Made by a program: the position numbers and the translations under genes
Shown: piece by piece, positions 27 to 26,694 of the stretch
Layout: every line of letters begins with the position of its first letter
Position numbering within the stretch: the first letter of the stretch is position 1
The notes under the pieces: model-generated
The model's input: the letters and a program-made list of their open reading frames with translations, nothing else
Databases searched by the model: none
What the model was told of the DNA's origin: nothing
NCBI GenBank assembly: GCA_038142325.1
Contig: JAYQJW010000005.1
Coordinates: 1-26,694, forward strand
Reading direction: 5' to 3'
Source of the DNA: Gammaproteobacteria bacterium
GTDB taxonomy: Bacteria > Pseudomonadota > Gammaproteobacteria > GCA-002705445 > GCA-002716945
DNA length: 26,694 nucleotides

Positions 27-1200
27 ACCATCTACCATTTACAACTACACCATTTATTTTCTCACCCCAATATACATTTAGTTCTCCTTGCTTTGTTTTA
101 ATAATGTAATCACCGAACTCTTGTAAAAATCTATCCGCCAGACATTTTACACTCAATAAATCCTCCCATTCTTCTAATGATAGAACTTCTTGATGCTCTG
201 GTATTTCAATACCTTCATCAAAGGGTTTCTTGATCCACCCTACATCAATATTATACTTATCTTTAATAAGGATATTGAGTTCCTCACAAATAGTTTCATA
301 ATCAGTTTCTTTTAATATCATAAACCCATCTTGACAAGGGACAATATCTTCTATTCTGGTTATATCTTTATTGATAAGGTAAGTGATACATTCTTCTTGA
401 ATAATCTTCTCTATGGATTGCGACCATAGACCCATAACTCCTCTTTTTGCTTCGCCCTCGTTTTTCCATTTATGCTTATCTTGTTTCAATACATCTTTTT
501 TAATCTGTGGATTAGCATTATACACAATCTCAATAATCGTTTTCATAAAATCCTCTATTTCTACAAAATCCTTAATTCTATTGTTTTCATTCATAGTAAT
601 ATCTGCCTCCTTAATCCAAGTGCTATATGATCCACCAAACATAAGGATAATTGGTAATTGCTTTGCTGTATCCTTATTACAATTATGATGGTTCATAATA
701 AACTCCCTGTATTTTTTAGGATTTTTCACATATTTAGAAAGATATGTATTATTAAGGTTATGATGCTTACAGATTTCATTAATGATAGTTGGTTGTGCGT
801 TAATCATATCCAGATCCACATAACTACCCTCACAAAAAGTATGTCTGGTTGGTCTGTGAAATATACTTGTTGAAAGATAGTTGTGTGGTTGAGTTCTACC
901 CCATTTATGCTTTGCTAATTTATGTGCTACTTGGAAACGATTTAATTTACGATTATACAATTCCTTAAACTTTATCATCTGTTCTAATTCCGTCTTGTAG
1001 GTTTTACATACACCACCTTCATATCTGGGAACTGATTGGTATGATATACCCATCTCCGCTTTTATAAAACCATAGAGTTTCGCCACATCTATAAGTTCTA
1101 CACATTTCTTCTTCTCAAAGATAGTTGTTCTTACGATAGAAGAGTTTAAAGTCCATTCAAACTTGAAAGGTTGGTTTTCTGTTTCTGGATTTTCCGCCAT
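1..1200 (-). CDS. 5' part of TVpol (family A-derived primase-polymerase)-SF3 helicase fusion; continues at 26668
   Basis: Manual translation from ATG 1200 gives 400 codons with no stop (MAENPETENQ...). Motifs: KWGR, YVDLDMINAQPTI (motif A), AKQLPIILMFGG (motif B), SQSIE, PCQDGFMI (motif C). In frame with 25475..26602 across the junction. Missing from the ORF track. Confidence 0.88.
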   Translation of the reverse strand, partial: MAENPETENQPFKFEWTLNSSIVRTTIFEKKKCVELIDVAKLYGFIKAEMGISYQSVPRYEGGVCKTYKTELEQMIKFKELYNRKLNRFQVAHKLAKHKWGRTQPHNYLSTSIFHRPTRHTFCEGSYVDLDMINAQPTIINEICKHHNLNNTYLSKYVKNPKKYREFIMNHHNCNKDTAKQLPIILMFGGSYSTWIKEADITMNENNRIKDFVEIEDFMKTIIEIVYNANPQIKKDVLKQDKHKWKNEGEAKRGVMGLWSQSIEKIIQEECITYLINKDITRIEDIVPCQDGFMILKETDYETICEELNILIKDKYNIDVGWIKKPFDEGIEIPEHQEVLSLEEWEDLLSVKCLADRFLQEFGDYIIKTKQGELNVYWGEKINGVVVNGRWYNETHKDKQ

Positions 1201-1227
1201 TATAATATAGTAGTATATAATAATATT

Positions 1228-1244
1228 TCTTTATATTGTTTTTT
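1228..1244 (-). promoter_or_regulatory. Putative early promoter motif AAAAAACAATATAAAGA
   Basis: Near-identical copies lie 24-30 nt upstream of six ATGs: 1228, 1600, 2560, 3647, 4056 (minus strand) and 4103 (plus strand). Confidence 0.7.
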
Positions 1245-1308
1245 AATATAAAACTTAAAAATGATTTATATTAAAATATCCAAATATTCCTAAATGTTTT
1301 ATATAAAG

Positions 1309-1572
1309 TTAATGTATTTCTATATATTTTTGTAGAATATCTTGTATAAACTCTGGTTTCTCTTCCTTCAACTTATTCAAATTATCAAAGCATTTTGCTA
1401 CTAATGGTAAGTATATATCATACCTTTTCATATCATCACTATTTAGACCAAACTTGTTCTTATAATAATATGCTTTATTCTTTGCTTTTATTTTATCGCC
1501 ATTTTCAGCATAGTCCTTTCGTTTCCATTCTCTAATATAGGTTCTGCTTTTGGGTTCGTTTTCGTTCTCCAT
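1309..1572 (-). CDS. Small basic hypothetical protein, possibly DNA-binding
   Basis: 87 aa; K/R/Y-rich helix YIREWKRKDY...KNKAYYYKNK; promoter motif upstream. Confidence 0.75.
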   Translation of the reverse strand: MENENEPKSRTYIREWKRKDYAENGDKIKAKNKAYYYKNKFGLNSDDMKRYDIYLPLVAKCFDNLNKLKEEKPEFIQDILQKYIEIH

Positions 1573-1638
1573 TATAATATAAATAGATATATTAATATTT
1601 CTTTATATTATTTTTTATTATATATTTATATGAATTAT

Positions 1639-2535
1639 TCAATTACTATTATCTACACCAAATAGCATCTCATCATTCTCCACCACATAATTACACCCTA
1701 ATAGGTGTCCTAATCCGTCTGCTATTATTGATTGATCCACTAATGCGTTAATATCAACCATATCATATAACATATCATCTTCATTCTCAATCATATCATT
1801 AATATCTTCATCTCTTAATATGTGTGTGCTTTCATTAATATACACATCTCCACTTTCCTCATAATCGGTTCTACAACAAGGACACTTCACATTATTACTA
1901 TTACAGATTGTTTTAAAACAACCCAAGCAAATTGGGTGTCCGCAGAATGTATTTCTCTTTACACAGATGGTTTTGGTTCTTCTCAATATCTTCTTTGTAG
2001 GGTGATTTCCAATAAGTTCCTGACGCTCTGTAATCCCAAACTTCTCCATACATACAGGGCAATCATCAGTATCATATAAAGGTATATCTTCATCGCATTC
2101 CAAATCTGGTTCAGGATATTCAACTTCTTTTGTGTGATAAAATCTACTTTCATCTTTCACAAACCCTAAAATGTATATAGGGTTATAAGAGAATAATTTA
2201 CTCTCATCAACAATTTCATAAATCAAGTATTTTTTAAGGTGATCCTTCCTCTCACATACAAAATAGTAATATCTATCAAATATGAAGAGTTCGTAATTGT
2301 ATCTGGTTTCCAAATCGTCCGCATAGGAAATAGTAATCTTATTCAAGTCAAACTCTCCTTTATCTGGAAAGATAGTATGATAGTTCGCACAAAGATTATC
2401 AACGAAGTAGTTATGGATTTCAGGTTCTCCTAATACAACAAAATCAGGGTCATCATTCTTCGCACCATAAAGGCGGTATTTAAGTGTTGAGTTGAGTTCA
2501 GTAAGTAGCGTAGCAGTTTCAACCATAGTAGTCAT
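1639..2535 (-). CDS. RING-finger (C3HC4) protein, putative E3 ubiquitin ligase
   Basis: CPVC...CGHPICLGC...CPCCR with a long first loop; acidic tail. Confidence 0.8.
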   Translation of the reverse strand: MTTMVETATLLTELNSTLKYRLYGAKNDDPDFVVLGEPEIHNYFVDNLCANYHTIFPDKGEFDLNKITISYADDLETRYNYELFIFDRYYYFVCERKDHLKKYLIYEIVDESKLFSYNPIYILGFVKDESRFYHTKEVEYPEPDLECDEDIPLYDTDDCPVCMEKFGITERQELIGNHPTKKILRRTKTICVKRNTFCGHPICLGCFKTICNSNNVKCPCCRTDYEESGDVYINESTHILRDEDINDMIENEDDMLYDMVDINALVDQSIIADGLGHLLGCNYVVENDEMLFGVDNSN

Positions 2536-2612
2536 ATTATAATAGTATATAACCCTATCTCTTTATATTGTTTTTTCTTATAAATATATAATAATAATTC
2601 ATATAAAAGACC

Positions 2613-2763
2613 AAAAAGGTAGGAAAGTAGCAAACTGGGGCAGTAAATACACAATTTTCTTATTTCATTTTTTAAAAAAAAAAAGAGAACGCATCTTTTT
2701 TATATTTTTGATTTATAAAATCTTTGAAACTACCGCACAGGTTTGCTACTTTTCTACCTTTTT
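2613..2763. repeat. Palindromic element copy A (33-bp imperfect inverted arms, AT-rich core)
   Basis: 2613-2645 matches the reverse complement of 2731-2763 at 28/33 positions; arms contain tandem GTAGNAAA units. Confidence 0.9.
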
Positions 2764-2819
2764 CTACCCTTTATAATAAATATCCTTATAAAGATACTTA
2801 TTATAATATAATGATCCAC

Positions 2820-4628: not shown

Positions 4629-5354
4629 CTAATATGAATGAATATTCAATATTTCTAATAATCCTTTTCTAAACCGCTTTGTTGCGTCTTCTTCCATATC
4701 AATTACTAATGGTGAGAACTTTTCGGCAGTAGCATACTTGTATAGTTCCAATAACTCTTCTTTTGTGATCCCCAAACCAAACTCACTTAAAATTAAATTG
4801 ACTTCTCTGTTTCCAGACAATTTCAGTAAAACCATATAACTACAATTATTTCTTATGATTTTTGGTATTTTAAAAAATGATTGACTAATGAATATAACTG
4901 ATACATTCAATTTTCTTGCTCTTATATAATAATTCTCAACCATACTTAAATCCTTTGCTAAAACTAAATCGTCCCATACTACCAAGTGGTTCAATTCTTT
5001 ATCAAACTTATCCAGAGGTGGAGTATTACTTAACCCTTCTTTAATAACAATCTGGTCGCTCTTTTGTGAGATCCACCGATACAAAGGTTCATCTTTATTA
5101 CGAGTTATGATTGTAATACTCTGGAATGTGCCTTTATTAGCACTAAATATGGAGATGAGATTTACGAGAAAGTTTGTCTTTCCTGATCCAGATGGAGCAA
5201 CTATACACATACGAAAAGGTAATTTTAACTGATGTAGATGGAAGTTGGGATTATCCACCTTATCCAGTAATTCCTTTGGTATTTTTTCATATAGGTTTTT
5301 AATTGTTCCATCTGGTTCATCTTCCTTCACAACCTTTTTCTTTTTAGGAGGCAT
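4629..5354 (-). CDS. A32-like (FtsK/HerA) DNA packaging ATPase
   Basis: Walker A APSGSGKT, Walker B LVVWDD, arginine finger region RARKLNVS, and ISQSFFKIPKIIRNN. Confidence 0.95.
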   Translation of the reverse strand: MPPKKKKVVKEDEPDGTIKNLYEKIPKELLDKVDNPNFHLHQLKLPFRMCIVAPSGSGKTNFLVNLISIFSANKGTFQSITIITRNKDEPLYRWISQKSDQIVIKEGLSNTPPLDKFDKELNHLVVWDDLVLAKDLSMVENYYIRARKLNVSVIFISQSFFKIPKIIRNNCSYMVLLKLSGNREVNLILSEFGLGITKEELLELYKYATAEKFSPLVIDMEEDATKRFRKGLLEILNIHSY

Positions 5355-5421: not shown

Positions 5422-6564
5422 ATGAGTGCTTATCCACCACCAAAGGAGAATGTCCCTATTTACAATCCCAAAGATTTTGAGTTTGAAAATATACCATTAA
5501 CATTAGCAGATGCGAAGGATTATTATTTGGAATATCCAACAGCACAAGGCAAAGAAACCTTACAGGAAACAATAATAAATGGTGCTTTAACTTGTAATGA
5601 TGTTGCTACGATTAATGATAGTTTAGACATATCACAACCAACAAATACTTTAAATGCCCTAAATATAGAGCAAGATGAACCAGGATATACTATCAGGGCA
5701 ACCCAAAAAACAGGATCAGGTGGAACATTATTAGTATCTGCCTCATCATCAACAGGTAAAAGTAATGTAATAACCCAACAAGGAGATACTGAAATAGCAG
5801 GAAACACATTAACATTAGTCCCAATAACTCAACAAAACGGACAAGGTATAAGATTACGCTATATATCAAATGATATGTATGGTATTACCAGCATAAAAAA
5901 TAGTGGATCATCACAAGGTATATTAATATTTCCTGATAATTCACAACAAACTACGGCATATAAAGAACAAGTATATAATTTTCCTATGAATTGGAATAAT
6001 GGAAACTGGTATAGATTAGGAAGTCCAGTCCCTTTAAATGTAGGTTTTACATCTGCTTTTATAAATATACCATCATTAGCAGTAAGCGACCCATTATACC
6101 AATACGCAGGGTTCAGTATTACATTAGAAATAACATATAACCTGACTGGTTATGTAAATACAAGCACTAATTTAAATACTGCTAATGTTTATACAGGGTA
6201 TAATTTAGCAAGGTTTAGTATGAGTAGAGCAAATGGAGTAGTAGATATTCAAGATATACTTATGGTTGGTAATATGAGAACCCAACAAACAATAACAGCA
6301 AACGGACAATCTAATTCTAATTTTAAACCTTATTATATAGATTATGCCTCACAAACAAATAAAAATGGATTAGAAATATTCTTTTGGGACGGAACGCTTC
6401 CAGCAGGAGGTAGTCCAGCAGTTAATCCTTCTATTACGAGTTATGTGAGAAGTGTTAGAATTGTAAATACAACACCTACAACATTAACATCTAATCCTAT
6501 GACGAGAACTGAACCAAATAATAAAACAACAACGCCTTTTATTGCTTACTTTAATCCACAATAA
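5422..6564 (+). CDS. Fibre/spike-like virion protein 1
   Basis: T/N/S/G-rich; N-terminus MSAYPPPKENVPIYNP shared with the next two ORFs. Confidence 0.7.
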   Translation: MSAYPPPKENVPIYNPKDFEFENIPLTLADAKDYYLEYPTAQGKETLQETIINGALTCNDVATINDSLDISQPTNTLNALNIEQDEPGYTIRATQKTGSGGTLLVSASSSTGKSNVITQQGDTEIAGNTLTLVPITQQNGQGIRLRYISNDMYGITSIKNSGSSQGILIFPDNSQQTTAYKEQVYNFPMNWNNGNWYRLGSPVPLNVGFTSAFINIPSLAVSDPLYQYAGFSITLEITYNLTGYVNTSTNLNTANVYTGYNLARFSMSRANGVVDIQDILMVGNMRTQQTITANGQSNSNFKPYYIDYASQTNKNGLEIFFWDGTLPAGGSPAVNPSITSYVRSVRIVNTTPTTLTSNPMTRTEPNNKTTTPFIAYFNPQ

Positions 6565-6622
6565 TATAATGATTTAGTAATATTTAATTGGAAAAAAATA
6601 AAATCTTTATTAATTATATATA

Positions 6623-7990
6623 ATGAGTGCTTATCCACCGCCTAATGAGAACTTACCAATTTTTAATCCATTAGATTTTCAACGACCTAATATTCCTCTT
6701 ACTATCAACGATGCGAAGGATTATTTTTTAGAATATCCAACAGCACAAGGACAGGAAACATTAAGCAGTATAATAGTAAATGGATCATCAACTTTTAATG
6801 ATGTAGCAGATGTAAATGATACACTAACAATTAATCAACCAACATCATCTCTAAATGCCGTTCAAATAGTAAGTGATAATCCAGGTTATAGTTTAACCGC
6901 CACTTCAAGAACCAATCCAGGAACAGCAGGATTATTAACCATAACAGGTTCATCGTCAGTAGATAAAGAAAACCCAATAGTAGCGGATACGGATAGTGTT
7001 ATATCCACATCTATAAACGGACAAGATGATACAGGAAACTTATGTTTAACTGGTAAATCATCTACAAATGGAAATGGAATTAGAATATTAGCAGGAAGCG
7101 GTGTTTATAATTACGGACCATTTAAATTATTACAAGGAGCAGGTAATCAAAATGCCGAAATTGTTTTTAGTGATTTAACTACACAAACAACAGCATTTAA
7201 TAGCAGTTTATATGCCCCAATTAATTCACCAGTTTTTACAGGTGTTCCAGAAGCACCCACACCAACACAAGGAGATAATAGCACAAAATTAGCAACAACG
7301 AATTATGTAGATACAGCAGTAGGAGGTGGTGGTTCAGTTCATTATACTTATACTGAATTATTTACTAATGGATCATCAGGAACAAGTGTAAGTATAACTA
7401 TACCTGCTAATTGTATTAGATGTGATGTAATGACTTTTGGTAGGGGAGGTTCAGCAGGGCAAACGAATGCTTATGGTTCTTATGCGGTGAATGGAGGTAG
7501 TGGAGGTGGTGCTTCTATGGTATGTGCTTATGGAGTTCCTATCAATTCACTCTCTACATTAGACCTATATTGGACTGCTGGGACTACGAGTTCAGGAATA
7601 GCATATGTAATGTTAAATAGTGCTTTACCATTAGGTTCTGCTTATAATGGTGGAGATGGTGGAGCAGGACAAAGTAGCGGAACAGGAGCAAAAGGAATAG
7701 GTGCTACGGCAGTAGCAACTCAACCAAAGTTCCCCAATAGTTCTTTTGACGGAACAGACGGACAAGATGGTGGATCATCAGGATTTCCTAATAGTAATGT
7801 CCCACACGGCGGTAATCAACCTGTTAATGTAGGAAAGCAGGAAATTATTGGTGGATCACAGGGCGGACCAGGCATAGGACAGAAATATTCTGCTTTTAAT
7901 GACCCTTCTGTATCACCATCATTTTATTATAATGCTTCACCACATTTAAACGCTGGTAGTTGTCTTATAACTTGGTATATTAAACAATAG
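6623..7990 (+). CDS. Fibre/spike-like virion protein 2 with phage tail-fibre repeat and Gly-rich domain
   Basis: Paralogous N-terminus; YAPINSPVFTGVPEAPTPTQGDNSTKLATTNYV matches a tailed-phage fibre motif; Gly-rich C-terminus. Confidence 0.78.
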   Translation: MSAYPPPNENLPIFNPLDFQRPNIPLTINDAKDYFLEYPTAQGQETLSSIIVNGSSTFNDVADVNDTLTINQPTSSLNAVQIVSDNPGYSLTATSRTNPGTAGLLTITGSSSVDKENPIVADTDSVISTSINGQDDTGNLCLTGKSSTNGNGIRILAGSGVYNYGPFKLLQGAGNQNAEIVFSDLTTQTTAFNSSLYAPINSPVFTGVPEAPTPTQGDNSTKLATTNYVDTAVGGGGSVHYTYTELFTNGSSGTSVSITIPANCIRCDVMTFGRGGSAGQTNAYGSYAVNGGSGGGASMVCAYGVPINSLSTLDLYWTAGTTSSGIAYVMLNSALPLGSAYNGGDGGAGQSSGTGAKGIGATAVATQPKFPNSSFDGTDGQDGGSSGFPNSNVPHGGNQPVNVGKQEIIGGSQGGPGIGQKYSAFNDPSVSPSFYYNASPHLNAGSCLITWYIKQ

Positions 7991-8070
7991 ACCATTTAGA
8001 AGAATATTAAGGATTGATTGCTTAATTTTTATTAATATAATAAATTATTATCTTATTATATTATATATAG

Positions 8071-10365
8071 ATGGCGAATTATCAACCACCAACCGAAGAT
8101 GTGCCTATATTTAATGGTAAGTATTTCACCGCAGAAAACATAACAACAGCAAACGGAGATGGTAGATATTTAAAATTAATAGCACAAGGCGACGAAGATA
8201 TGAATAATTATGATATTCTTAATATCAACCAAGTAGATACTCAATCCGTAAAGTTTGGTGATGGGACTATACAAACAACAGCAGGAGGAGGAGGTGGAGG
8301 AGTTCAAAATCCTATGACTTCCAATTTAGATGCTGGTAATTTTTTTATACAGAATGCTGGTCTAATAGAAACATTTTATTTAGAAAATACAAAAGTAAAT
8401 AATGCTGATGCTATTAAGTATATTAATTTTGGTGCTATAACCGCTGGTGATAAATACTTAATTGGACGAAGTAATAATCGTCTTGCTATGGAAGGTAATA
8501 TTATGGTCTTAATTAGAACTTTGGACGCTGGTTTTAAACAAGAGTTTCTGGCGGAAGTTATAGCATTCCCAGATAGAAGTGTTATAAGAATTATCAATAA
8601 TGTATGTGAAAGCGATACAATACCCATTACTGAAATACTTTATGAAGATGACCCATTAGATCCACTACAATCTGTATTATGTTTTAAATGTGGTGTAAGT
8701 GCTACAAGATGCGATATTTTAGTTTATCAAAATGGTAATGATAATAACACATTAGGAAGTCAATTTTTAATACCTACTACAATAACATCTATACCAACAT
8801 CTACAAATGTATATACATCTGTATTATTGGAAGTCCAAACAGCAGGAACAAGTGGTAATTACAGAACAGCAGGAACAACCTTTTCAAGTGATACACAAAC
8901 TATTACATTAGCAACTAACGCAATAAGAGAATTAACAGCAACAGCAGACATTCAATTACTTAACAATATCAATCTTAATAATAATAGCATTAAAAATACA
9001 AATACAATATCAGTAGATAATATTGGTGTAAATCTCAATAGTGAAATACAATCCACAGCATCAATCAATCTCGGTGGAAATGACCTACAAAATACTAATA
9101 ATGTGTATGTTGATAGTTTAAGAGAGAATACACCAGGTAATAGTATTGTGGTTCATAATACCCTCAATATGAATAATAATCATATACATAATTTAAGTGA
9201 TCCAATACAAAATAAAGATGGTGCTAATAAGCAATATGTAGATACTGCCGTAGCAGGATTTTTAACCAATCCTTTAAATGCTAATTTAGATGGAGCATCA
9301 CTTTATAAAGGTATTAATTTTGTTGATCCAACTAACGCCCAAGATTTAGCAACCAAAAATTATGTGGATACAACAGGAGGAAGTGGAGTTCAAAATCCTA
9401 TGACTTCTAATTTAGATGGTGGGACTTTTAATATTACTAATGTTGGGAACTTCTCTAATGTTCCTACAACAGGTAATTTTTTCAGTAATGGACTATTTCA
9501 ACATTCTAACGGAGCATTCCAAATTGGAGGTTCAGGTATGACGACTGATACAGATGTTAATTTTAATGATAGTGCTACACCTATATTACAAATTAATAAA
9601 ACAGCAAGGCAAATTAATTTAGCGAATGGTTCAACAACATATATTAAACCAGGTGCGGTTTTATCAGCAGGACAAGGTGGAGCATTAATTACATACCAAA
9701 CATCAACACCAGCAACCGCTTATAATGGTGAAATAACAACATCATTTTACCCACCAAATCCAAATAGAAGAAATGATTTTTTGACCTTAACAGGATATAA
9801 TTATGGTAATTCAGTAATTCCTATGGCGATTTCACCGATGACTACACAACAATATTATACTGCTAATGTAGCGGATTATGTGCCTTTTACTGCTGGATTG
9901 GGGTGGAATGCTGGTAATAATGGTGATATAATCCCTCTGGTTCAACGAAATACATTAGTTCAATTGGACGGATTACCACCAGGAATTAATAATCACGATG
10001 CGAATGCGTTTCCGTTTGACGCTCATTTTATAGGAATTGGTTTAAATTGTGCCTCTCAATTAGGAGGTTGGGTATTGACTGGTGTAGCACAAGTAGAATT
10101 AGTTTATAGCATTATTGGTGCGAGTTATGTTTCATTTGTTCCCCCTGTAATAGTAGCACAATCAGGAGCAGGTGGTAATTTAACAATAGAAAATATAAGA
10201 TTACCACAAAGTAGTTGGGTGGAAGCATCTTCTTCCTCTTTTGGTGGTATTCAATTAGGATTACAATTAAACATATCAGGAGCAGATATTATTGATACAC
10301 AAGATCCAAGTAATAAATCTATAAATGCCTGTGGATATTTATTATGTAATATTCCTATCAATTAA
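8071..10365 (+). CDS. Fibre/spike-like virion protein 3
   Basis: Repeats GVQNPMTSNLD (x2), DPIQNKDGANKQYVD and DPTNAQDLATKNYVD; Asn-rich beta repeats. Confidence 0.75.
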   Translation: MANYQPPTEDVPIFNGKYFTAENITTANGDGRYLKLIAQGDEDMNNYDILNINQVDTQSVKFGDGTIQTTAGGGGGGVQNPMTSNLDAGNFFIQNAGLIETFYLENTKVNNADAIKYINFGAITAGDKYLIGRSNNRLAMEGNIMVLIRTLDAGFKQEFLAEVIAFPDRSVIRIINNVCESDTIPITEILYEDDPLDPLQSVLCFKCGVSATRCDILVYQNGNDNNTLGSQFLIPTTITSIPTSTNVYTSVLLEVQTAGTSGNYRTAGTTFSSDTQTITLATNAIRELTATADIQLLNNINLNNNSIKNTNTISVDNIGVNLNSEIQSTASINLGGNDLQNTNNVYVDSLRENTPGNSIVVHNTLNMNNNHIHNLSDPIQNKDGANKQYVDTAVAGFLTNPLNANLDGASLYKGINFVDPTNAQDLATKNYVDTTGGSGVQNPMTSNLDGGTFNITNVGNFSNVPTTGNFFSNGLFQHSNGAFQIGGSGMTTDTDVNFNDSATPILQINKTARQINLANGSTTYIKPGAVLSAGQGGALITYQTSTPATAYNGEITTSFYPPNPNRRNDFLTLTGYNYGNSVIPMAISPMTTQQYYTANVADYVPFTAGLGWNAGNNGDIIPLVQRNTLVQLDGLPPGINNHDANAFPFDAHFIGIGLNCASQLGGWVLTGVAQVELVYSIIGASYVSFVPPVIVAQSGAGGNLTIENIRLPQSSWVEASSSSFGGIQLGLQLNISGADIIDTQDPSNKSINACGYLLCNIPIN
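8299..8332 (+). repeat. 34-bp intragenic direct repeat (second copy 9385-9418)
   Basis: GGAGTTCAAAATCCTATGACTTC(C/T)AATTTAGATG, one mismatch. Confidence 0.9.
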
Positions 10366-14135: not shown

Positions 14136-14180
14136 ATGGGGCGAGTATGCCCTCATCGTCCGTTAATATAATTGAGGGCA
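14126..14180 (+). promoter_or_regulatory. Predicted -1 programmed ribosomal frameshift signal (slippery heptamer plus H-type pseudoknot)
   Basis: A AAA AAC at 14126-14132, in frame just before TAA; 6-nt spacer. Stem 1 GGGCGA(14139-44)/TCGTCC(14156-61); stem 2 TGCCCTCA(14148-55)/TGAGGGCA(14173-80). The -1 frame is open into ORF 14147. Confidence 0.78.
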
Positions 14181-15484
14181 AAGGTGTAGGGAGCATAGAC
14201 AATTATTATCTAAAAATCCATTTTACAGATGCTAATAAGGATTATAGAAATCTAACAATACATACCCCAACGGAAGCACAGATGAAAACATTTCTAACCA
14301 AATTGAAACCAGTATTAAACAAATATAAAATAAGTGTTGATTTAAGTAAATTAAAAATTGGATCATCAAGATATAAAGACCAAGAGTTCTTTATAGAATG
14401 TTGTGAATGGTATGATATGCCTGAATATAAACAAAATCCAGCACTATTGAATACCAAGCATATAGTATTACAAATACAGAAAGGAAACCAAACTGAACCA
14501 TTCTTAACCGATATTAGCAAAATATTAGGTGAAAACATAAATAAAAAAACCTTTGGTTGGTTTCCAGAAAGACCTAATAAAATACTTAACCCTTATAAGG
14601 GTAAGATGTGGGAAAGTAAAGGACATATGCCGAAGTATCCTATTTACATATTATCCAAAGGTAGATGGGAAAGACGATTAACCAGTAAATATTTGGAATG
14701 GTGTGGAATACCATATAAGATTGTTGTTGAACCACAAGAATACGAAAAATACGCCGAACATATTGATAAGAGTAAAATATTGATTTTACCAAAGAAATAT
14801 CTGGGTAAAGACCAAGGAGGAATACCAGCAAGAAACTTCATAATGGATCACGCCAGAAGCAAAAGTAAAACTGGACGGCACTGGATATTGGACGATAATA
14901 TTGGTGATTGGAAAAGATTAAACAATAATGAAAGAGTTGTAGTCAAAGGTGGTTGTGTGTTTAAGGTAGTAGAAGATTATACAGATAGATATGTTGATGT
15001 GAAAATGAGCGGACATAACTACACTATGTTTGGTATGAACCCATCATTAGATCCAATAACAAAAAATACGAGGGTTTATTCTTCTATATTATTAAGCAAC
15101 GATATACCTGATAAAATAGGTGAAGGTTGGAGAGGTAAATATAATGAAGATACTGATTTATCCTTACGATTATTAAAGGCAGGATTTCCTACCATATTGT
15201 TTAATTGTATTATGGCGAATAAAGAAACTACATTAACAAATAAAGGAGGTAATGAGAAAATCTATAAAGAGAAAGATGGTCTTTATAAAAAGGCAAAGTC
15301 ATTAGCAGACCAGCACCCAGATGTCGCCAAAGTTAGTGAGCGTTATGGAAGAGTTCATCATATAGTAGATTATTCTGGATTTAAAAACCTACCATTAAAA
15401 TTAAAACCAGGTTTAAAAATACCTAAAAAAGTAAATAATTATGGAATGAAATTAGTTGATAAAGTCAAAAACCCTATACCATAA
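14147..15484 (+). CDS. TET/JBP-associated (TAGT/GREB1-like) GT-A glycosyltransferase with N-terminal accessory domain
   Basis: YPIYILSKGR, ARNFIMDH, HWILDDNI, TRVYSSIL, WRGKYNEDTDLSLRLLKAG, KGGN, YGRVHHIVDY. Confidence 0.85.
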   Translation: MPSSSVNIIEGKGVGSIDNYYLKIHFTDANKDYRNLTIHTPTEAQMKTFLTKLKPVLNKYKISVDLSKLKIGSSRYKDQEFFIECCEWYDMPEYKQNPALLNTKHIVLQIQKGNQTEPFLTDISKILGENINKKTFGWFPERPNKILNPYKGKMWESKGHMPKYPIYILSKGRWERRLTSKYLEWCGIPYKIVVEPQEYEKYAEHIDKSKILILPKKYLGKDQGGIPARNFIMDHARSKSKTGRHWILDDNIGDWKRLNNNERVVVKGGCVFKVVEDYTDRYVDVKMSGHNYTMFGMNPSLDPITKNTRVYSSILLSNDIPDKIGEGWRGKYNEDTDLSLRLLKAGFPTILFNCIMANKETTLTNKGGNEKIYKEKDGLYKKAKSLADQHPDVAKVSERYGRVHHIVDYSGFKNLPLKLKPGLKIPKKVNNYGMKLVDKVKNPIP

Positions 15485-15659: not shown

Positions 15660-16193
15660 TTAACATTCACTTAATATCATAGGTTCTCTTGGATCTTCTA
15701 TATCATCAGGACATTCTTTATACTTCATAAAACTTTCCACAGACGGAAACTTCATAACCCTAATGAGGTCTGTAAGTTTATCAACTGGAATATGGTAATG
15801 TGGTTTAGGTCTGTCCCTAATTCCATACCTATAAGTCATCACATCTTTTACTTCAAATGTATCCCATAACTCTTTATCATAATCCAGAGAGCAAGTAGCG
15901 TCTTTAAAATTAAATACGAATACCTGTTTTTTATCTGTATCTCTTACCTTACTAACTGGAACAATTGTAGTAGGGTATGTGTGCTTATTACATCTACGAG
16001 ATTTCAATTCCCAACTTGTTCCGCTGTTTGCTTCAAAGTCATATATGTAGTAATCGTCCCCATAAATGTCTTTGGTGTTCTTAATGTCCTCTTCATCTTC
16101 CCAATTCAGTTTTAGAATGTCTATGACTTCCAACTCTTTTTCTAACCCCATTTTTAGGTCGTTTTTAAAACTACGGATTTTATCACTTTCCAT
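15660..16193 (-). CDS. PD-(D/E)XK superfamily nuclease
   Basis: G..KE helix, then YDF...WELKSR, YPTTIV..SK, FVFNFKD. Confidence 0.75.
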   Translation of the reverse strand: MESDKIRSFKNDLKMGLEKELEVIDILKLNWEDEEDIKNTKDIYGDDYYIYDFEANSGTSWELKSRRCNKHTYPTTIVPVSKVRDTDKKQVFVFNFKDATCSLDYDKELWDTFEVKDVMTYRYGIRDRPKPHYHIPVDKLTDLIRVMKFPSVESFMKYKECPDDIEDPREPMILSEC

Positions 16194-16289: not shown

Positions 16290-17174
16290 ATGGAAAACAT
16301 TAAGGAATACATTTCTAAAAAGCGTCCCTCACTTTCTAAATCGTCCCTCACTACATACGGAAGTATTTTAAGAAACCTCTACAAGAGAGTTTATGAAGAT
16401 GATGATTATAATTTAGACAGATTTAATGTCCCTGCCCCTGTCCTTAAATATTTAGAAGGAATACCACCAAATAGAAGAAAGACCATTTTAAGTGCTTTGG
16501 TAATCATTACAGATAAAAAGGAATACCGAGATTTAATGCTAAAAGATGTAAGGGATTATAACGCCGACATTAATAAGCAAGAGAAGAATGAAAAACAAGA
16601 AGCAAGTTGGGTTGAGAAAGAAGCAGTCAATCAGGTTGTAGCAGAACTACGAAAGAATGCCGAAGCAATTATGAAGAAAGGACAGAAGACCATAAGTGAT
16701 TTACAAGAAATCCAAAATTACATTATTTTATGTGTTTTAGGTGGTGTATATATTTCACCCAGAAGATCCAAAGATTTTGTTGATTTTAAGATACGAAATA
16801 TTGATGTGAAGAAGGATAATTATATGGAGAAGAATAAGTTTATATTCAACTCTTATAAGACAGCAAAAACATACGGCAAACAAGTTGTAGATATACCAGT
16901 TCAATTGAAGAATATTGTAGCAAAGTGGATCAAGATTAACCCCACCGAGTATTTATTCTTTGATGCTAATATGAATAAGTTAAGTGCTGTGAAACTCAAC
17001 CAAAGGTTAAATAAAATCTTTAATGGTAAGAAGGTTGGTGTTAATCAACTGCGTCATACTTATCTTACTGATAAGTTCGCTGATACGATTAAGAAAGAGA
17101 AGGCAATAGCAGACACTATGGAAGATATGGGATCATCAAAAGAGATGTTAAAGACCTATGTAAAGAAAGAGTAG
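16290..17174 (+). CDS. Tyrosine recombinase (virophage/PLV OLV11-like type)
   Basis: PRRSKDF (Arg), YKTAKTYG (Lys), VNQLRH, MGSS...KTYVK (Tyr). Confidence 0.88.
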   Translation: MENIKEYISKKRPSLSKSSLTTYGSILRNLYKRVYEDDDYNLDRFNVPAPVLKYLEGIPPNRRKTILSALVIITDKKEYRDLMLKDVRDYNADINKQEKNEKQEASWVEKEAVNQVVAELRKNAEAIMKKGQKTISDLQEIQNYIILCVLGGVYISPRRSKDFVDFKIRNIDVKKDNYMEKNKFIFNSYKTAKTYGKQVVDIPVQLKNIVAKWIKINPTEYLFFDANMNKLSAVKLNQRLNKIFNGKKVGVNQLRHTYLTDKFADTIKKEKAIADTMEDMGSSKEMLKTYVKKE

Positions 17175-17308
17175 CAAAGTAGCAAACTTGTGCGGTAATT
17201 ACAAAGATTTTATAAATAATTTTTTAATAATTAATTATGATTATTAAAAAATGAAAAATGTTTTTAAGAAAATATCTAAAACACCGCCCCACTTTGCTAC
17301 TTTTCTAC
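17171..17308. repeat. Palindromic element copy B, inverted relative to copy A
   Basis: Arms 17171-17196 and 17283-17308 match at 22/26. 17171-17217 matches the reverse complement of 2711-2757 at 43/47. Confidence 0.9.
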
Positions 17309-17920
17309 CATTTTCATACCTACTGGTATTTTGGTAAGGTCTAATCTATTACCTTCTTCTTTCTCTACGATGGGTTCTAAATCAATATCTATGGCGTTCC
17401 TTTTCTTTGGATCACTACTACGGAAGAAGTGCTTTAATATGTATTCATTCTTCTTAAAATCAACACTTTCATTTAAATCATCAAACATATCCAAGAATGT
17501 AGATACATCTTGGTATAAATCCTTACTTCTATATTTACTACTATTTATGAAGTGTAATAAAGCACAACAAAACCAACCACAGGCATTATTCATAAGGGAT
17601 TGAATATCCTTTGTGGTTTCTGGAATATTCTTACCAATTGTTCTCTCAACTGCTTTCTTAACATCACTCGGTTTTCCAACCCCATAAGGATCAAAGTAAA
17701 TACCTTCTGTTTTACCATTTGGATACTTATTAATCTGTAAGCAGACCCAGTGTGTTCCACCATTCTTTTTACCATCTTCGTCATACTCGTCTTCTAAATT
17801 AATTATGTATGCTTTGTTAAACTCTAACTTGTTAGGCAGTTCATCTTTAAAGCAAATATCCGCTAATGGTATTTCCATTCTTTTACAAAGTTCCCTTAAT
17901 GCGACATCTGTTAAACTCAT
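17297..17920 (-). CDS. Adenain-like (clan CE) cysteine maturation protease
   Basis: YIINL, GTHWV (His), YFDPYG (Asp), IQSLMNNACGWFC (Gln, Cys). Confidence 0.93.
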   Translation of the reverse strand: MSLTDVALRELCKRMEIPLADICFKDELPNKLEFNKAYIINLEDEYDEDGKKNGGTHWVCLQINKYPNGKTEGIYFDPYGVGKPSDVKKAVERTIGKNIPETTKDIQSLMNNACGWFCCALLHFINSSKYRSKDLYQDVSTFLDMFDDLNESVDFKKNEYILKHFFRSSDPKKRNAIDIDLEPIVEKEEGNRLDLTKIPVGMKMVEK

Positions 17921-21700: not shown

Positions 21701-21714
21701 ATTCCTAAATATTT

Positions 21715-22602
21715 TTATTCACCTTTATCCTTAATCACTAAAAGAAAAGTAATTGCTGGATCATTAATCTGGATTGGTTGAAGGTTTGTTCCTAATATAG
21801 TAAGACGAAGTTGGTTATATGTTCCAGGCAGAAGTTTATTCCAAGCAAATTGAGGTGGTTTTTCATTAATTAATGCCCCAATAGCAACAGAAGGAACAAT
21901 AGAATAAATTACTGATGTTGGATTAGCATACTTATTATCAATACCAGAAAGAGATACTAAAATACTACTATTAGGTTGAATATCTGGTGCTGTTGTAGAA
22001 ATATAGGATAATGTGCCGTTTGCTAATTTACTTACATAATCATCATTAGCAGGAGGAACATAAGCGTTATTTGTATTGGCGTTTGTAGTAAAGTTAGGAA
22101 CAAAACCTAAAATAGTATTGATATTTGTGGGTAGAATAAATTGTGGGTTAAATGTTTGTGTTGGATAACCAACCCAGGAAGCAGGTTCAGTAAAACCAGC
22201 AGGTAAAGAAGTTGGGACTAAAAAGGTATTCAACTGAACGGCATACCTACTTGGATTGACTATCATTTCTAAATAATATACATTTTCACCAGCACTATTA
22301 ACTAAATAATGTCCGTTCTGTATTAGAGCAAATTGTAGATATTCGTTTAATCTTGCTACTTCATAAAGACCATCTGGAATATCTATTGTGTATGTGGTTG
22401 TGGTTGCTCCCACTGTCCAAGTATATTGGATAATATTGTTGTTATATCTTTCGCTAATATTAAACCAACTATAATACATAGAAACTTGTGATAGAGCAAC
22501 ATAACTATCCTTAAACTCAACAGAACCAGGAAAATTGTAAATCATTTTATTATTCTGTCCATCTGGAACAAGATTACTACGATTTAAGACAATTGTTCGC
22601 AT
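21715..22602 (-). CDS. Minor capsid (penton) protein, single jelly-roll
   Basis: VALSQVSMYYSWFNIS..YNNN, IDIPDGLYEV..LN, ILGF, and a terminal LRLTIL...INDP strand pattern typical of Polinton/PLV pentons. Confidence 0.88.
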   Translation of the reverse strand: MRTIVLNRSNLVPDGQNNKMIYNFPGSVEFKDSYVALSQVSMYYSWFNISERYNNNIIQYTWTVGATTTTYTIDIPDGLYEVARLNEYLQFALIQNGHYLVNSAGENVYYLEMIVNPSRYAVQLNTFLVPTSLPAGFTEPASWVGYPTQTFNPQFILPTNINTILGFVPNFTTNANTNNAYVPPANDDYVSKLANGTLSYISTTAPDIQPNSSILVSLSGIDNKYANPTSVIYSIVPSVAIGALINEKPPQFAWNKLLPGTYNQLRLTILGTNLQPIQINDPAITFLLVIKDKGE

Positions 22603-22996: not shown

Positions 22997-23016
22997 TATA
23001 TATTATACATAGAAAA

Positions 23017-24700
23017 TTAAAAACCCATTTCTGTTAATTCTAAAAGTAATTCTTTTACTTGTGATTTTGGTATAACACCTTTATTACTCAATTTCATTAT
23101 TGTTGATTTAAACTTTCTTACTAAATCTTTATTATCATTACCAGACATAATTTGCCCCTTCATAATCTCAAACTCATCAATTTCCTTATCAATATCACTC
23201 TTTTTTGGTGCTGGTAAAATCAATCTGTCTTTAAGGTTGCTCTTCTCTGCTAATTTATTGAGATAGACCTTTTCACCATCATCTAAATCTTGTAAATCCT
23301 CAAAATCAGGCATTTCATTATTGGTAATTCCTCTTATGATGTGTCCCAATTTTCTTGAAACTCTCTCACTTGGAAAATCCTTAATTGATGATCCAGCAGG
23401 TCTTTTTACTGCTATTACATTATTTTCTAAACGATGCTTATTAATTATATACTTACCAAAAGGAACATATTTAGGTGTAGGTGCTACACCACCAAACCAA
23501 TCAATAGTAGGTTTTTTCTGGACTTTCTTTTGGACTTTTCTAACCAATCCCTTACCTTCTATTTTTCCTAATGCCTTTTCATCTGCTATATCACTAAACT
23601 CTTCTCTCCAATTTTGGTTCAACCAACCAATTAAATTATTTTTACTTCCTTGTTCTAATTGCTTACTTACCCTTAATCCATTATCTCTGGCGAACTTAAT
23701 TAGATCCGCTTTTGTGAATAATTTAAAATTACCAGGTAAAGGAACATCACCAGGATACTTTAATTGACTTCCACTTCGTCCAGGAACAAGTAATTCACCA
23801 CTTTCATCAGTAGGTAGTTGGACTAACACTTGTTCTAATTGTCCCACCAAGTTTTCGGTTTCTGGTTGAAGTTGAAATAAACTAATACCTTTTACCAGAT
23901 GGTCGTTCATTCCTCCCTTATCCTTTGCTCTCGCATACATAAAAGCACCATCTAACCATCTTTTCATAACTATTGATGTAGGTAATTCACCACCAATATC
24001 ATTTGCTAATTTCAATCCAGTATTTACAGCGTCGGCATCAATAAATCTACCTTGTGAAGTTAAATCCGCTACTGCTCCTCTAATAAGTGGATATAGTCCC
24101 ATTAATCTCATTACTGATTGTTGGAAACGACCACTAACACCTCGTTCTACACCTAACCCATTATAAGCGTCATAAGCACTCTTCATAAATGATTGTAATT
24201 CACTTACAGAAGGGAACGCTTTTACCATATCCCTACTATTGAGTTCTACATTTCGTCCTGATGTTTGTTGTAATCCTGTTTCAATTCCATTCACATTCGC
24301 CTGTGTATTCATATAATTCACCAAAAAGGGTTCAAAAATCTCCGCATAAATACCTAATCTATATTTTTGGTTTAAGTTCCTTGTTAATAGCATCGGCACT
24401 CTGGGCGTAGAATAGCATTTGTTTTGGTGTTAATTCTTGGACGATTTTGTTTGCTTCTTTTCCGTCCGTAATCTCGCTTAACTTTGACCTAACTTCTACT
24501 TTCAATCTCTCAATATCCGCTAATTTCTCTTCGGTTGTTCTAAAATCACTTGGTTCTACTGGTAGTTGTCCTGTTCGTTTATAGACCTTATTTGCCTGTA
24601 AATTAACATCATCTAACCTTGCTCGTAGATCCAAGTTTGCTAAATACTGCTGTCTAAACTTATCAGCGTCGCTGGGGTTTCTGTTCGGTTGTCCGCTCAT
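23017..24700 (-). CDS. Conserved Polinton/PLV-type protein; one gene split by a 1-nt frame break near 24365
   Basis: Overlapping ORFs 24359..24700 and 23017..24399 join as ..AINKELKPKYRLGIYAEIF..; IEGKG site; C-terminal KGQIMSGNDN motif. Confidence 0.72.
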
Positions 24701-24794
24701 ATCTATACTATTAGGAAAGAAAATAATAATATATTAATTTATGAAAATCGGTTTATAAATTAATAATTTGGTCTAAACTATTTTGTTTGTGAAA

Positions 24795-25229
24795 TTAGTT
24801 TTTAAATATTTCCTCATTCGTTTCTCTTATTTGTTTATTCAATTCCTCGCTTGTGAAGGTATTTCCTGCTACATCGTATATAACCATATCATCAGGCATT
24901 AGTGGTTGCCCTATTCTATTGCCTTCTACTCTGTATTTGGTATAGTCATCAGTTTCATTCAATACTTTTTCCAATACTATATCATTAAACTCTTCTTGGA
25001 TCTCTTGTTCGCTTTTTGTATGAAACCATTTCGTCATAACATCTAATACCTTCTTCTTGTCCCTTTTATTCATTTGTGAAGGGTTGGTTAGTGGGTGATG
25101 CCCTAAACTTTCTAATGCTATTATCTTACATTTCATCGCCTTTTCCTTCATATCCAGTAATTCCAATTCTTCTTGGGAAACCAATTTGGTAGTTTCCTCC
25201 CTTTTCAATTCTGGTTTTGCTAAACTCAT
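24795..25229 (-). CDS. Hypothetical protein
   Basis: 144 aa ORF with late-type upstream motif and a downstream hairpin (TATTAATTTAT..ATAAATTAATA). Confidence 0.75.
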   Translation of the reverse strand: MSLAKPELKREETTKLVSQEELELLDMKEKAMKCKIIALESLGHHPLTNPSQMNKRDKKKVLDVMTKWFHTKSEQEIQEEFNDIVLEKVLNETDDYTKYRVEGNRIGQPLMPDDMVIYDVAGNTFTSEELNKQIRETNEEIFKN

Positions 25230-25281
25230 TATATATATTATAATTAGAAAAAAATAATTATAATATTAATATTCTCTATTT

Positions 25282-26694
25282 TTAATCACTATCACTATCA
25301 TCACCAGTATCTAACATACAACCTGTTTGTTGTTGTTCTTTAACTGATACACCTACCATCATTTTACCAGTTTTACTATTGCCTTCTATTCTAAATTGTT
25401 CTTCACACCATTTATAAAACTCATCTCTACCATACTGCCTTCTTTCTCTGTAAGGCATTCTCTTATATTCATCATCATAAGTTAATAGTATCCCACATAT
25501 CCTTTAATCTTATTGTCTTTGCTTTCTTATCTTGCTTACTATCGTTTTCTTCTACTGGGTTCTTAATATAATGATTGTTGAATAGTTTTAAGAATAGATT
25601 TTGGTTTTCAATAAACTTCTCGGTTCTATCTCTAATAGATTTTGGAATAGTAAAAATAATACCTTTATCGCCATCTGGATCTTTAAAATGTCTATATACA
25701 CCCAACAACATATCTAAAAAGCAATCTCTTACCCTCTGGATAAACTCTTGGGTTTCATAATAGGTATTACCTTCTTTGTATTGTATTCCATCAAAGGTTT
25801 TACCGATTTTCTCTGGATCATCTGTAAAATTAACAGGGAAGAATAAATCTACCAATCTTCTATAATCCGCCCTTTGTGGTTTTCCATCTAAATCTGGTGA
25901 ATTATTGAACTCCATAACAAAAGTAGCACTCATATAGAAACTTTCTGGATTACAATTCAACAATCTACCACAGAACTTACCACCACCAGTAAGGTTTCTT
26001 AACATAGCAACTCTAATAGCACCTGCTACTTCCTTGAAGTTGATATATCTTTTATTCTTTAAATTAAACATATCTGGTGAAGGTGTATTCGCCCTCTCTA
26101 CATCTTTCAATATACCATTACCAGGTTGAAAGTAATACTCACCTAATACTGCGTCCATTAATGAACCAGTAAGACCCTTACCATTACCACCTTGTCCGTT
26201 GAATAAAAATAACTTCTGGTATGCTCTACCATCTAACCCACTCGCCAATACTTTCAAAAATAATTCTCTGTGTTCTGGATCTGGGTGTATATCTTCAAAT
26301 ATCTTCGCCAACATTTCTTTTGTTTCTTGATTATGTTTATCTGTATAATCTACTTCTTTGTAATCGTATTTTGTTGATAAGGTAATATAGTCATCAAAAG
26401 TGTAATCTCTAAACTCGTCTTTTCTTAAATCATACACACCATTATTGAAACCTAATAAGAATGGATCACTATTAAAATCAGTTTCTATTTCCTTTGCTTT
26501 GGTGAGAATATGCTTAATTATATCATTCATTTTGTTAGATACACTACAATTGGTTCTTAATGTTTTTAACAACTTGTTTATATCCTTCTCATCTAACTCC
26601 ACAGCACCAACAATTTCATTATGAATAATATTAAATAAATCCTCACTTATATATCTGTATAATTTATATTGCTTATCTTTGTGAGTTTCATTAT
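25282..26694 (-). CDS. 3' part of TVpol-SF3 (D5-like) helicase; as sequenced stops at 25475, +1 frame continues to 25282
   Basis: LLGFNNGVYDL (D5-N), Walker A GQGGNGKG, Walker B YINFKE, NLTGG, MEFNN, ADYRRLV..FPVNF. Confidence 0.9.

Follow-up and report, generated by a model that had tools for sequence, protein, structure and literature searches.

A virophage genome that keeps GATC in a single flanking context and at even spacing within a wide purge of restriction-type words

Why should a genome allow the tetranucleotide GATC in one flanking context and in no other, and what keeps the allowed sites in place? The question is raised by contig JAYQJW010000005.1 (26,694 bp) of the assembly GCA_038142325.1, which is filed as a gammaproteobacterium; this whole contig is referred to here as the window. 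Every GATC in it lies within GGATCW or the complement WGATCC (W being A or T). The window has a GC content of 32.5%, and comparison of the contig ends revealed a terminal direct overlap of 26 bp, from which it follows that the window is a circular, complete genome. It is a virophage genome mis-binned in a bacterial metagenome-assembled genome (MAG). The remaining contigs form a bacterial genome of ∼1.1 Mb (98.5% complete), and a family search of the whole assembly gave no giant-virus capsid gene. As the rest of the assembly comes from an unrelated bacterium, the virophage is a mis-binned passenger and the other contigs, including the 937-kb bacterial contig C2, are usable only as a same-run control.

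An exact scan located 57 GATC sites (Table 1), all of them GGATCW/WGATCC, in agreement with the manual count of a first-pass annotation made from the sequence letters. The contexts are GGATCA (22), TGATCC (17), AGATCC (11) and GGATCT (7), that is, 39 sites of the GGATCA type and 18 of the GGATCT type. AGATCT, TGATCA, AGATCA/TGATCT, CGATCN and GGATCC have 0 copies each; CGATC is missing although CGATA, CGATG and CGATT are present 20, 15 and 25 times, respectively. Fifty-five sites are genic and two intergenic, 26 of the 28 genes hold at least one, and seven of the nine genes shorter than 450 bp hold exactly one. The base preceding GGATC is T at 45 sites, G at eight, A at three and C at one.

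The loss of GATC outside GGATCW is far beyond chance. Base composition predicts 80 GATC sites in total and the density in C2 predicts 72; in C2, GGATCW makes up 688 of the 2530 GATC sites (27%), which scales to ∼20 in the window. We shuffled synonymous codons within the 28 genes, a set chosen by hand from the list of open reading frames (ORFs), and for this gene set 1000 replicates gave 37.5±4.9 GATC sites in other contexts (minimum 23) against 0 observed, and 36.9±4.2 GGATCW sites (maximum 53) against 57. In a constrained resampling, synonymous codons were drawn with every other purged word (see below) forbidden. With GATC left free, 32.9±5.0 other-context sites were still expected (minimum 18), and with the other GATC contexts also forbidden the expectation for GGATCW rose to 48.9±4.7 (maximum 60). 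The apparent enrichment in GGATCW count is therefore largely a compensation for the forbidden words. The first-pass annotation had described one class of GATC as eliminated and the other as enriched 2–3-fold, and had proposed a codon-preserving shuffle as a check. The elimination stands, with 0 sites against 33–37 in the codon-aware nulls, and the shuffle does not reproduce it; the enrichment holds against base composition, but comes down to 1.2–1.5-fold against the codon-aware nulls, most of it compensatory. The form TGGATCW is in excess under the constrained resampling as well (45 versus 28.6±3.1, maximum 34), and this excess is unexplained.

The rule is carried out through synonymous codon choice. 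In front of codons beginning with CW, Asp is encoded 19 times by GAC and never by GAT when the preceding base is not G, and seven times by GAT and never by GAC when it is; in the window overall, GAT outnumbers GAC by 375 to 86. Likewise, Arg-Ser is written four times as AGA-TCC and never as AGA-TCW, and Gly-Ser is written 17 times as GGA-TCW.

GATC is the only one of the 12 G/C-containing 4-bp palindromes that remains in the window. TGCA, AGCT, CATG, GTAC, CTAG, TCGA, ACGT, GCGC, GGCC, CCGG and CGCG have 0 copies, with C2-scaled expectations of 7 to 116. Ten families of the form XY-N-Y'X' are also practically absent (including ACNGT, AGNCT, CANTG, CTNAG, GANTC, GCNGC, GTNAC, TCNGA and TGNCA), as are five or six of the form XY-NN-Y'X' (CTNNAG, 0 versus 103 expected; GTNNAC, GCNNGC, GGNNCC and TGNNCA), and AGCC, CCCG, RAATTY, GATATC, GGATG, GAGAC and GCAGC are absent or nearly so. 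The purge thus comprises 11 of the 12 palindromes and ∼20 further families, about 30 or more word families including GATC, and had been missed by the first-pass annotation. The bacterial contigs of the same run have normal word content. A general avoidance of hairpins or palindromes was excluded, as the same half-sites with spacers of 3–4 are found at normal frequency, palindromes made of A and T alone occur and the loss is confined to particular families; the pattern as a whole is the signature of many discrete recognition specificities. Depletion beyond the codon-aware expectation by synonymous choice, words in the form of restriction targets and sets that differ between lineages are all features of restriction-site avoidance. 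Two of the missing GATC contexts fall within purged families, TGATCA in TGNNCA (4 versus 86 expected) and GGATCC in GGNNCC (0 versus 14). The GATC-specific remainder of the rule is the loss of AGATCT, AGATCA/TGATCT and CGATC.

The word AGCA is over-represented in the window (351 versus 165 expected, both strands). This is likely due to the forbidden AGCT and AGCC, the purge thereby distorting the frequencies of neighbouring words.

The retained sites are spaced with unusual regularity. The circular gaps between the 57 sites have a mean of 468 bp, a coefficient of variation (CV) of 0.57, a minimum of 81 and a maximum of 1093. Random placement gave a CV of 0.98±0.12 and maximum gaps that averaged 2168, and neither the observed CV nor the observed maximum gap was reached in 5000 trials. 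Among the 274 words with 40–80 copies, GATC ranked first for low CV (next word, 0.74; mean, 1.03±0.15). In a wider scan it ranked second of 996 words, behind a 21-copy word; low-copy words in bacterial control segments reach CVs of 0.46–0.51, so that CVs are comparable only at matched copy number. When proteins, codon usage and forbidden words were all kept (n=150), the CV was 0.89±0.08 (minimum 0.73), the maximum gap 2249±380 (minimum 1369) and the median minimum gap 9. We also considered exclusion of close pairs as the only cause, which was ruled out: when pairs within 80, 150 or 250 bp of each other were strictly forbidden, the counts fell to 44.5, 40.9 and 33.1 and the maximum gaps were still at least 1406, and the 80-bp exclusion-only null (44.5±3.4 sites) had a CV of 0.78. 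Trimming of both gap tails at a high site count argues for selection for coverage, and positive selection on GGATCW spacing is, in our judgement, likely. That the sole tolerated context is also abnormally evenly spaced argues for a function of GGATCW and not for mere tolerance, which supports the earlier suggestion that GGATC is a recognised or protected word. Spacing statistics had been proposed along with that suggestion, and the sites fall outside all the nulls. Coverage is of the Dam type, that is, even and devoid of long site-free stretches.

We then compared related genomes. The main set comprised 80 related IMG/VR loci with major capsid proteins (MCPs) 50–99% identical to that of the window, and metagenome relatives that include the sisters L084–L088 and L090–L093 were compared as well; most of the relatives are partial contigs. 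At least one palindrome is purged in 74 of the 80 loci, more than three in 46 and more than eight in 17, and the surviving words differ from lineage to lineage. In the assemblies of the window clade, which are not independent of one another, GGATCW accounts for 12/12 GATC sites in L001, 35/35 in L002, 18/18 in L003, 28/28 in L005, 16/16 in L081 and 47/47 in L083; L082 has 26/27, the remaining site being GGATCC. The sisters (MCP identity 71–86%) have 0 GATC and 0 copies of all 12 palindromes. Among close relatives, GATC is found only in the window clade (MCP identity at least 95%), at 2.1 per kb and always as GGATCW. On the simplest reading of this distribution, GATC would have been regained in the window clade and limited to the GGATCW context. 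G-flanked GATC recurs in distant lineages (L028, 21/21 as GGATCN; L070, 13/14; L089, 5/5; L099, 26/33). In L024 all 11 copies of ACGT are GACGTW, which is the same rule of one G flank and one W flank, at uneven spacing (CV 1.06).

Even spacing accompanies the rule in relatives. The gap CV of GATC is 0.58 in L083, 0.60 in L002, 0.56 in L005, 0.56 in L082 and 0.61 in L099, and in lineages with unconstrained GATC it is 1.10 (L059), 1.10 (L063), 1.01 (L069) and 0.99 (L066). The window and L083 (84% nucleotide identity) share 22 GATC sites, with 16 found only in the window and 19 only in L083; spacing in L083 has been kept despite this ∼40% turnover of sites. Where the flanking G has been lost, the GATC has been lost too (GGATCT to AGATTT).

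In other lineages it is a different palindrome that is evenly spaced, with the rest purged: TCGA in L027 and L031 (CV 0.45 and 0.47; gaps 163–1422), AGCT and GTAC in L025 (0.49 and 0.62), and TGCA in L098 and L007 (0.55 and 0.67). Spacing is Poisson-like for retained CCCG, CCGG and CGCG, and for TCGA in L026. After adjustment for copy number, 6 of the 42 non-redundant loci that measure at least 14 kb have a 4-bp palindrome as their most even word (GATC, TCGA twice, AGCT, TGCA and, weakly, TTAA), where ∼0.3 would be expected by chance, such words being 0.8% of those tested; the same holds for none of 30 bacterial control segments. The generality of spaced palindromes rests on four lineages. A profile search of the complete genomes L027 and L031 gave no match to D12, N6_N4 or C5 methyltransferases (MTases).

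Two further words vary among these relatives. The window clade has CCAGA/TCTGG in abundance (72 copies of ACCAGA in 48 kb), and the close sisters L084–L090 have at most one copy. CCCG/CGGG has one copy in the window against ∼20 expected and none in the close sisters, L085 and L087 included; in L091–L094 it reaches 3.8–7.6 per kb, 5–10 times the bacterial density, with Poisson-like spacing.

We interpret the pattern as follows. The purge was very probably driven by nucleases: the virophage genome would have been shaped by DNA endonucleases met in cells co-infected with giant viruses, and through synonymous codons it has shed some 30 or more families of restriction-type words, with GATC among them. 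TGATCA and GGATCC have gone independently, with the TGNNCA and GGNNCC families. GATC would then have come back in the window clade alone among close relatives, as (T)GGATCW only, and its 57 sites are held at a minimal, even spacing of one per 81–1093 bp, which points to stabilising selection on their density and spacing. GGATC is the specificity of AlwI-type MTases, and GGATC in the virophage may be modified by an enzyme acting in trans and supplied by the cell or by the helper giant virus, the simplest candidate being an adenine MTase specific for GGATC; to protection of this kind we give nearly, but not quite, an even chance. Sites in the GGATC context would thereby be immune to the GATC cutters that remove all the other contexts, and the modified sites would serve a function for which one has to lie near every part of the genome. 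As every site carries a risk and the genome has to be covered, selection would keep few and evenly spread sites. A strand-discrimination or nicking signal, or a mark of 'self', analogous to Dam-GATC in Escherichia coli, are candidate functions, and any one of them, taken by name, is doubtful; MutS7 repair genes are present in marine giant viruses. The combination of a nuclease-driven purge with a single word that is shielded in trans and retained for a function across the whole genome is put forward tentatively, as somewhat short of an even chance. More generally, virophage genomes might record which nucleases and modification enzymes their helper giant viruses possess, every word cut by some helper strain being purged and the one modified by the virophage's own helper (GGATC here; TCGA, AGCT or TGCA elsewhere) being kept at minimal, even spacing as a genome-wide mark for strand discrimination, nicking or self-recognition, a counterpart of Dam-GATC in viruses of eukaryotes. 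This extension is conceivable, though on balance rather unlikely.

A role for DNA modification is supported by the circulation of modification genes in the family. We scanned relatives with Pfam (92 of 100 representatives of accessory clusters, and 48 ORFs of four loci) and found Dam-class (D12-class) MTases of two types, one in L070, L059, L066, L017, L077 and L079 and the other in L080, L064 and L052. GATC is mostly G-flanked in two carriers of the second type (L064, 7/8; L080, 11/13) and free in the first-type carriers L059, L066 and L017. Two of the GATC-free sisters carry a further MTase gene at a variable position that is described below.

Several observations weigh against trans protection combined with a genome-wide function. 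Pfam detected no MTase among the window ORFs and no real ORF has an amino-MTase catalytic motif; the first-pass annotation, too, had recognised no MTase gene. GGATCG is absent though it would be safe under simple GGATC methylation, and the loss of AGATCW and CGATC is not accounted for. AGGATC is depleted (3 versus 63 AGGATW) relative to TGGATC (45 versus 72 TGGATW), with the cause unexplained. L060 has no WGATCW among its 17 GATC sites and does have C-flanked GATC, so that the flank specificity of a nuclease could equally give the exemption. The window clade tolerates CCAGA and GGATCW, and the close sisters tolerate CTNNAG and GAGAC; vocabularies that differ in both directions fit different sets of nucleases better than one gained protection. 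Single GATC sites are mildly conserved (17/28 versus a background of 0.44 in L002), and replacement of lost sites nearby is weak (6/16 within 100 bp versus ∼3 expected; median test, p 0.2). L059 and L066, with an MTase of the L070 type, have free, Poisson-spaced GATC, so methylated GATC need not be even. A rule of one site in each gene is indistinguishable from a rule of one in each kb, and the function assigned to GGATCW is a guess.

The even spacing and the presence of sites in 26 of the 28 genes would also be expected if GGATCW were a direct binding, priming or nicking site of a virophage or helper protein, with no methylation involved and with nucleases removing the other contexts. The D5-like primase-helicase encoded by the virophage, a site-specific nickase or a genome-organising protein could be the partner, and the asymmetric preference for TGGATCW would fit such recognition. 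A nuclease-like ORF is also at hand: o177, a conserved ORF beside the integrase, may be a PD-(D/E)XK nuclease, judging from a motif picked out by visual inspection. This ORF is, however, 84–85% identical in the GATC-free sisters and therefore cannot set the GATC rule. GGATC sites of like orientation cluster in the window (18 runs, p 0.0015); no such clustering is seen in L083 (31 runs versus 24.4 expected), where neighbours of opposite orientation lie 25–55 bp apart; polarity is thus not conserved, and a polar, nickase-type role of the asymmetric G was left unsupported by the same data. In addition, what other lineages space evenly are 4-bp palindromes, which are characteristic of restriction-modification (R-M) enzymes and not of priming sites. 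We consider a direct site unlikely.

Somewhat less probable still is an explanation by nuclease specificity only, in which the GATC nucleases of this clade spare G-flanked sites and GGATCW is a neutral leftover with no function. The effective targets would be WGATCW/AGATCW and CGATC, together with those of TGNNCA and GGNNCC enzymes. Such an explanation accommodates the lack of an MTase in the window, the position of TGATCA and GGATCC in independently purged families, the loss of only WGATCW in L060 and the two-way difference in word vocabulary between window clade and sisters, and a count of 57 is within reach of the constrained null. It fails on spacing: neutral sites should be Poisson-spaced, yet the CV and both extreme gaps (81 and 1093) are outside every null, the exclusion-only null included, and the spacing has survived the turnover of 40% of the sites. 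True palindromes are equally even in other lineages, and we know of no enzyme of such specificity, i.e. one that cuts HGATCD.

The first-pass annotation had named a glycosyltransferase pathway among the possible reasons for the rule. The gene in question encodes a homologue of the TET-associated glycosyltransferase (TAGT), which also matches phrog_842, the beta-glucosyl-HMC-alpha-glucosyltransferase family of T2/T6 (E 7.5e-41). It occupies a variable slot between the ORFs o771 and o177 and is found, among close relatives, only in the window clade (the window, L002, L005, L081 and L083). It is not in the slot of L085 and L087, GATC-free sisters in which a short DNA MTase of 218–235 aa is present instead (L085:15835-16491 and L087:9755-10462; phrog_757, E 5e-15; PF00145 below the cut-off). 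The o177–o771 junction is thus a swap slot for DNA-modification genes.

A TAGT-dependent hypermodification of cytosine could protect the C of GATCC. The gain of TAGT coincides with the regain of GGATCW on the same branch among close relatives, CC is present on one strand of all the tolerated sites, and the few sites left over from other purged families contain CC or CCA. However, the pathway is incomplete: no match to PF12851 (TET/JBP) or PF00145 (C5-MTase) was found in the assembly, nor among the window ORFs by Pfam. The correlation amounts to one branch, which also gained o265, o86 and RING128; o265, an ORF specific to the window clade, has no family match and no informative atlas neighbour. 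Virophage-sized contigs very commonly carry genes of the TAGT type, the carriers L022, L025, L027, L031 and L032 have 0 GATC, and L070 follows the G-flank rule in the absence of TAGT. Taken together, these facts mean that TAGT alone does not explain the rule; comparison of genomes with and without the glycosyltransferase showed no family-wide correspondence between its presence and the tolerance of GATC, and the link proposed earlier is weakened accordingly. Moreover, purged words that enclose the same C are still absent (GANTC-C, GGCC-A, AGCC-A and GTAC-C). This explanation is improbable. A protective modification of cytosine linked to CCA or CC was considered also in its general form and was unsupported, as words placing the same C inside the site are still absent and 12 of the 57 sites are not GATCCA.

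An artefact of sequencing or assembly, or ordinary codon or amino-acid usage, has next to no probability: virophage coding does favour GGATCW (Gly-Ser as GGA-TCA, Asp-Pro as GAT-CCA; about half of all GATC, both in the shuffles and in those relatives where GATC is free), but usage is ruled out by the shuffle, the constrained resampling (0 other-context sites where 33–37 are expected) and the codon switch, and an artefact by the ordinary GATC context spectra of the eight other contigs of the assembly, by the rule's recurrence in independent IMG/VR, JGI and TARA assemblies and by near-identical virophage sequence in assembled contigs from five estuary, marine or seawater studies (20 runs found).

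Avoidance of restriction sites, mostly short palindromes, is classical for phages; it was reportedly treated for bacteriophage genomes by Rusinov et al. in 2018 (PMC6286503) and in PMC4687349. The window resembles phages in the synonymous removal of target-type words, in lineage-specific sets and in the kinds of words concerned, palindromic 4–6-mers and interrupted palindromes. It differs in being a virophage of eukaryotic giant viruses, in the extreme breadth of the purge, and in the retention of one word in a single flank context at even spacing. A literature search, supplementary files aside, found no prior report of word, restriction-site or palindrome avoidance in virophages.

Chlorovirus enzymes are specific for GATC, CATG, TGCA, GTAC, TCGA, RGCY and GANTC, and many of the words purged from the window equal these specificities. 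The pandoravirus 4-mer that stands out is said to be AGCT, which is absent; if so, it is the nearest giant-virus case of total loss of a 4-bp palindrome, there with no spaced word retained. The sources describe an anomaly in the 4-mer composition of the very large pandoravirus genomes (bioRxiv 10.1101/712018), methylation of TGCA and RCGY by ChlorV strains (PMC13196603), methylation of GATC and CATG by PBCV-1, and an unmethylated Zamilon virophage (PMC7253447). Giant-virus R-M as a weapon against virophages appears there as a hypothesis only (PMC7253447, Jeudy 2020, citing Filee 2018; PMC13196603). Unlike in those papers, the selection footprint described here is in the virophage genome itself.

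In E. coli, Dam-GATC sites are described as never more than 2 kb apart and are thought to serve methyl-directed mismatch repair (PMC7248222). The window shares the tetranucleotide core, the lack of long site-free stretches and a logic of coverage. It differs in having no Dam, MutH or MutS by Pfam, one flank context, minimal density and no sign of a repair role; the Pfam matches of the window ORFs, from a general scan not aimed at these proteins, include no MutS, MutL or MutH-type protein. The likeness to AlwI-type R-M lies in the tolerated word, GGATC, whose adenine methylation would block m6A-sensitive GATC cutters; unlike an AlwI-type system, the window has no such gene that we could find, lacks GGATCC and GGATCG, shows a T bias at −1 and is depleted of AGGATC. 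TAGT is described as the second glucosyltransferase of T2/T6 (PMC13216743). The window encodes a strong PF20691/phrog_842 member, as in the glucosylation of hydroxymethylcytosine in T-even phages, but has no enzyme producing that base, and sites are avoided instead of being globally modified.

Genomes of this virophage family have been purged of as many as all twelve G/C-containing 4-bp palindromes, in sets that differ between lineages, and in this they bear direct witness to strong and diverse endonuclease pressure in the three-way system of cell, giant virus and virophage. With it, the hypothesised use of restriction-type nucleases against virophages by giant viruses or hosts becomes testable. 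One word in one context at even spacing is unexplained by avoidance alone, and this argues for a sequence-specific partner acting along the whole genome; the pattern points to a protected, useful mark in an arms race with DNA-cutting enzymes. Word vocabularies could link uncultured virophages to their helpers and, if the link is true, predict the R-M repertoires of those helpers. A virophage contig that has been binned with bacteria by mistake, such as the present one, can also be recognised by its vocabulary.

Virophages are defined in part by a small dsDNA genome of ∼17–30 kb and by dependence on a giant virus. The gene content is consistent with the assignment to virophages (Table 1). The MCP has no Pfam match and no sequence match to the PDB; its atlas neighbours are Preplasmiviricota clusters, in one of which 29% of the members carry Sputnik_MCP domains. 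The predicted model is poor (pLDDT 51.5), so the fold result was used as a ranking only: the best Foldseek matches were Sputnik 3j26_A (E 4.3e-8) and mavirus 6g44/6g45, at TM 0.18–0.26. On this ranking the MCP is predicted to be a double jelly-roll protein of the virophage type. A packaging ATPase and, at sub-threshold scores only, an adenain-like protease would complete the set typical of virophages. An identical peptide of the D5-like primase-helicase is encoded at both ends of the window. The further Pfam matches among the window ORFs are RING proteins and DUF5872/DUF5754.

Table 1. Positions of the GATC sites and of genes named in the text, in window coordinates
Feature	Coordinates	Strand	Basis and remarks
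57 GATC sites (GGATCW/WGATCC)	232..26467	29 with GGATC on +, 28 on -	Exact scan
GATC starts, sites 1-19	232, 629, 813, 1734, 2241, 2813, 3355, 3507, 3846, 4492, 4767, 5070, 5185, 5714, 5906, 6783, 7371, 7773, 7854		Exact scan
GATC starts, sites 20-38	8659, 9199, 9325, 10303, 10576, 11442, 11632, 12045, 12544, 12816, 13297, 14361, 14846, 15050, 15692, 16765, 16928, 17131, 17410		Exact scan
GATC starts, sites 39-57	17689, 18233, 18935, 19153, 19772, 20072, 20586, 20999, 21229, 21759, 22852, 23390, 23703, 24628, 24999, 25678, 25816, 26278, 26464		Exact scan
A32/FtsK-type packaging ATPase	4629..5354	-	PF04665 Pox_A32, E 1e-12
TET-associated glycosyltransferase homologue (TAGT)	14147..15484	+	PF20691, E 5.9e-33, residues 164-368 (whole profile)
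o177, conserved 177-aa ORF adjoining the integrase and the modification slot	15660..16193	-	D...ExK motif by eye; no Pfam or PHROG match
Tyrosine-recombinase-like integrase	16290..17174	+	phrog_216 integrase, E 1.9e-4; no Pfam match
Cysteine protease (adenain-like)	17297..17920	-	Peptidase_C5, E 6.8e-4, and ElaD/SseL-like, E 6e-5, both below curated cut-offs; adenovirus proteinase 1avp_A, E 0.0038
Major capsid protein (MCP), 593 aa	19264..21045	-	Foldseek ranking and atlas neighbours
Putative penton (minor capsid) protein	21715..22602	-	Size, position adjoining MCP, kept in 65/80 loci
D5-like primase-helicase, N-terminal part	25475..26692	-	PF08706 D5_N, E 1.3e-12; runs over the circle junction into 1-1200 (-)

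Three successive large ORFs (380, 455 and 764 aa) at 5422-10365 on the + strand have an N-terminal module ('MSAYPPP.ENVPIFNP') in common and a high content of Gly, Ser, Thr and Asn. Their products are probably surface proteins of a fibre or tail-like kind, and the 764-aa third member has one homologue only among the 80 loci. Cargo genes in relatives include a small subunit of ribonucleotide reductase (L017:1063-2019, E 2.5e-100), a ThyX thymidylate synthase (L075:15024-15659, E 1.3e-41), an eIF-1A-like protein (L074:15008-15403) and a fusion of a SET domain with a PLP enzyme (L024:12216-14255).

The 21 CCWGG sites of the window (5680 ... 26121) are strongly polar: on the + strand, 20 are CCAGG and one is CCTGG, regardless of gene orientation. 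The polarity is mirrored in relatives with the opposite locus orientation (L083, 0:14; L085, 2:14; L087, 2:6), and could mark a polar process that runs genome-wide, such as replication or packaging.

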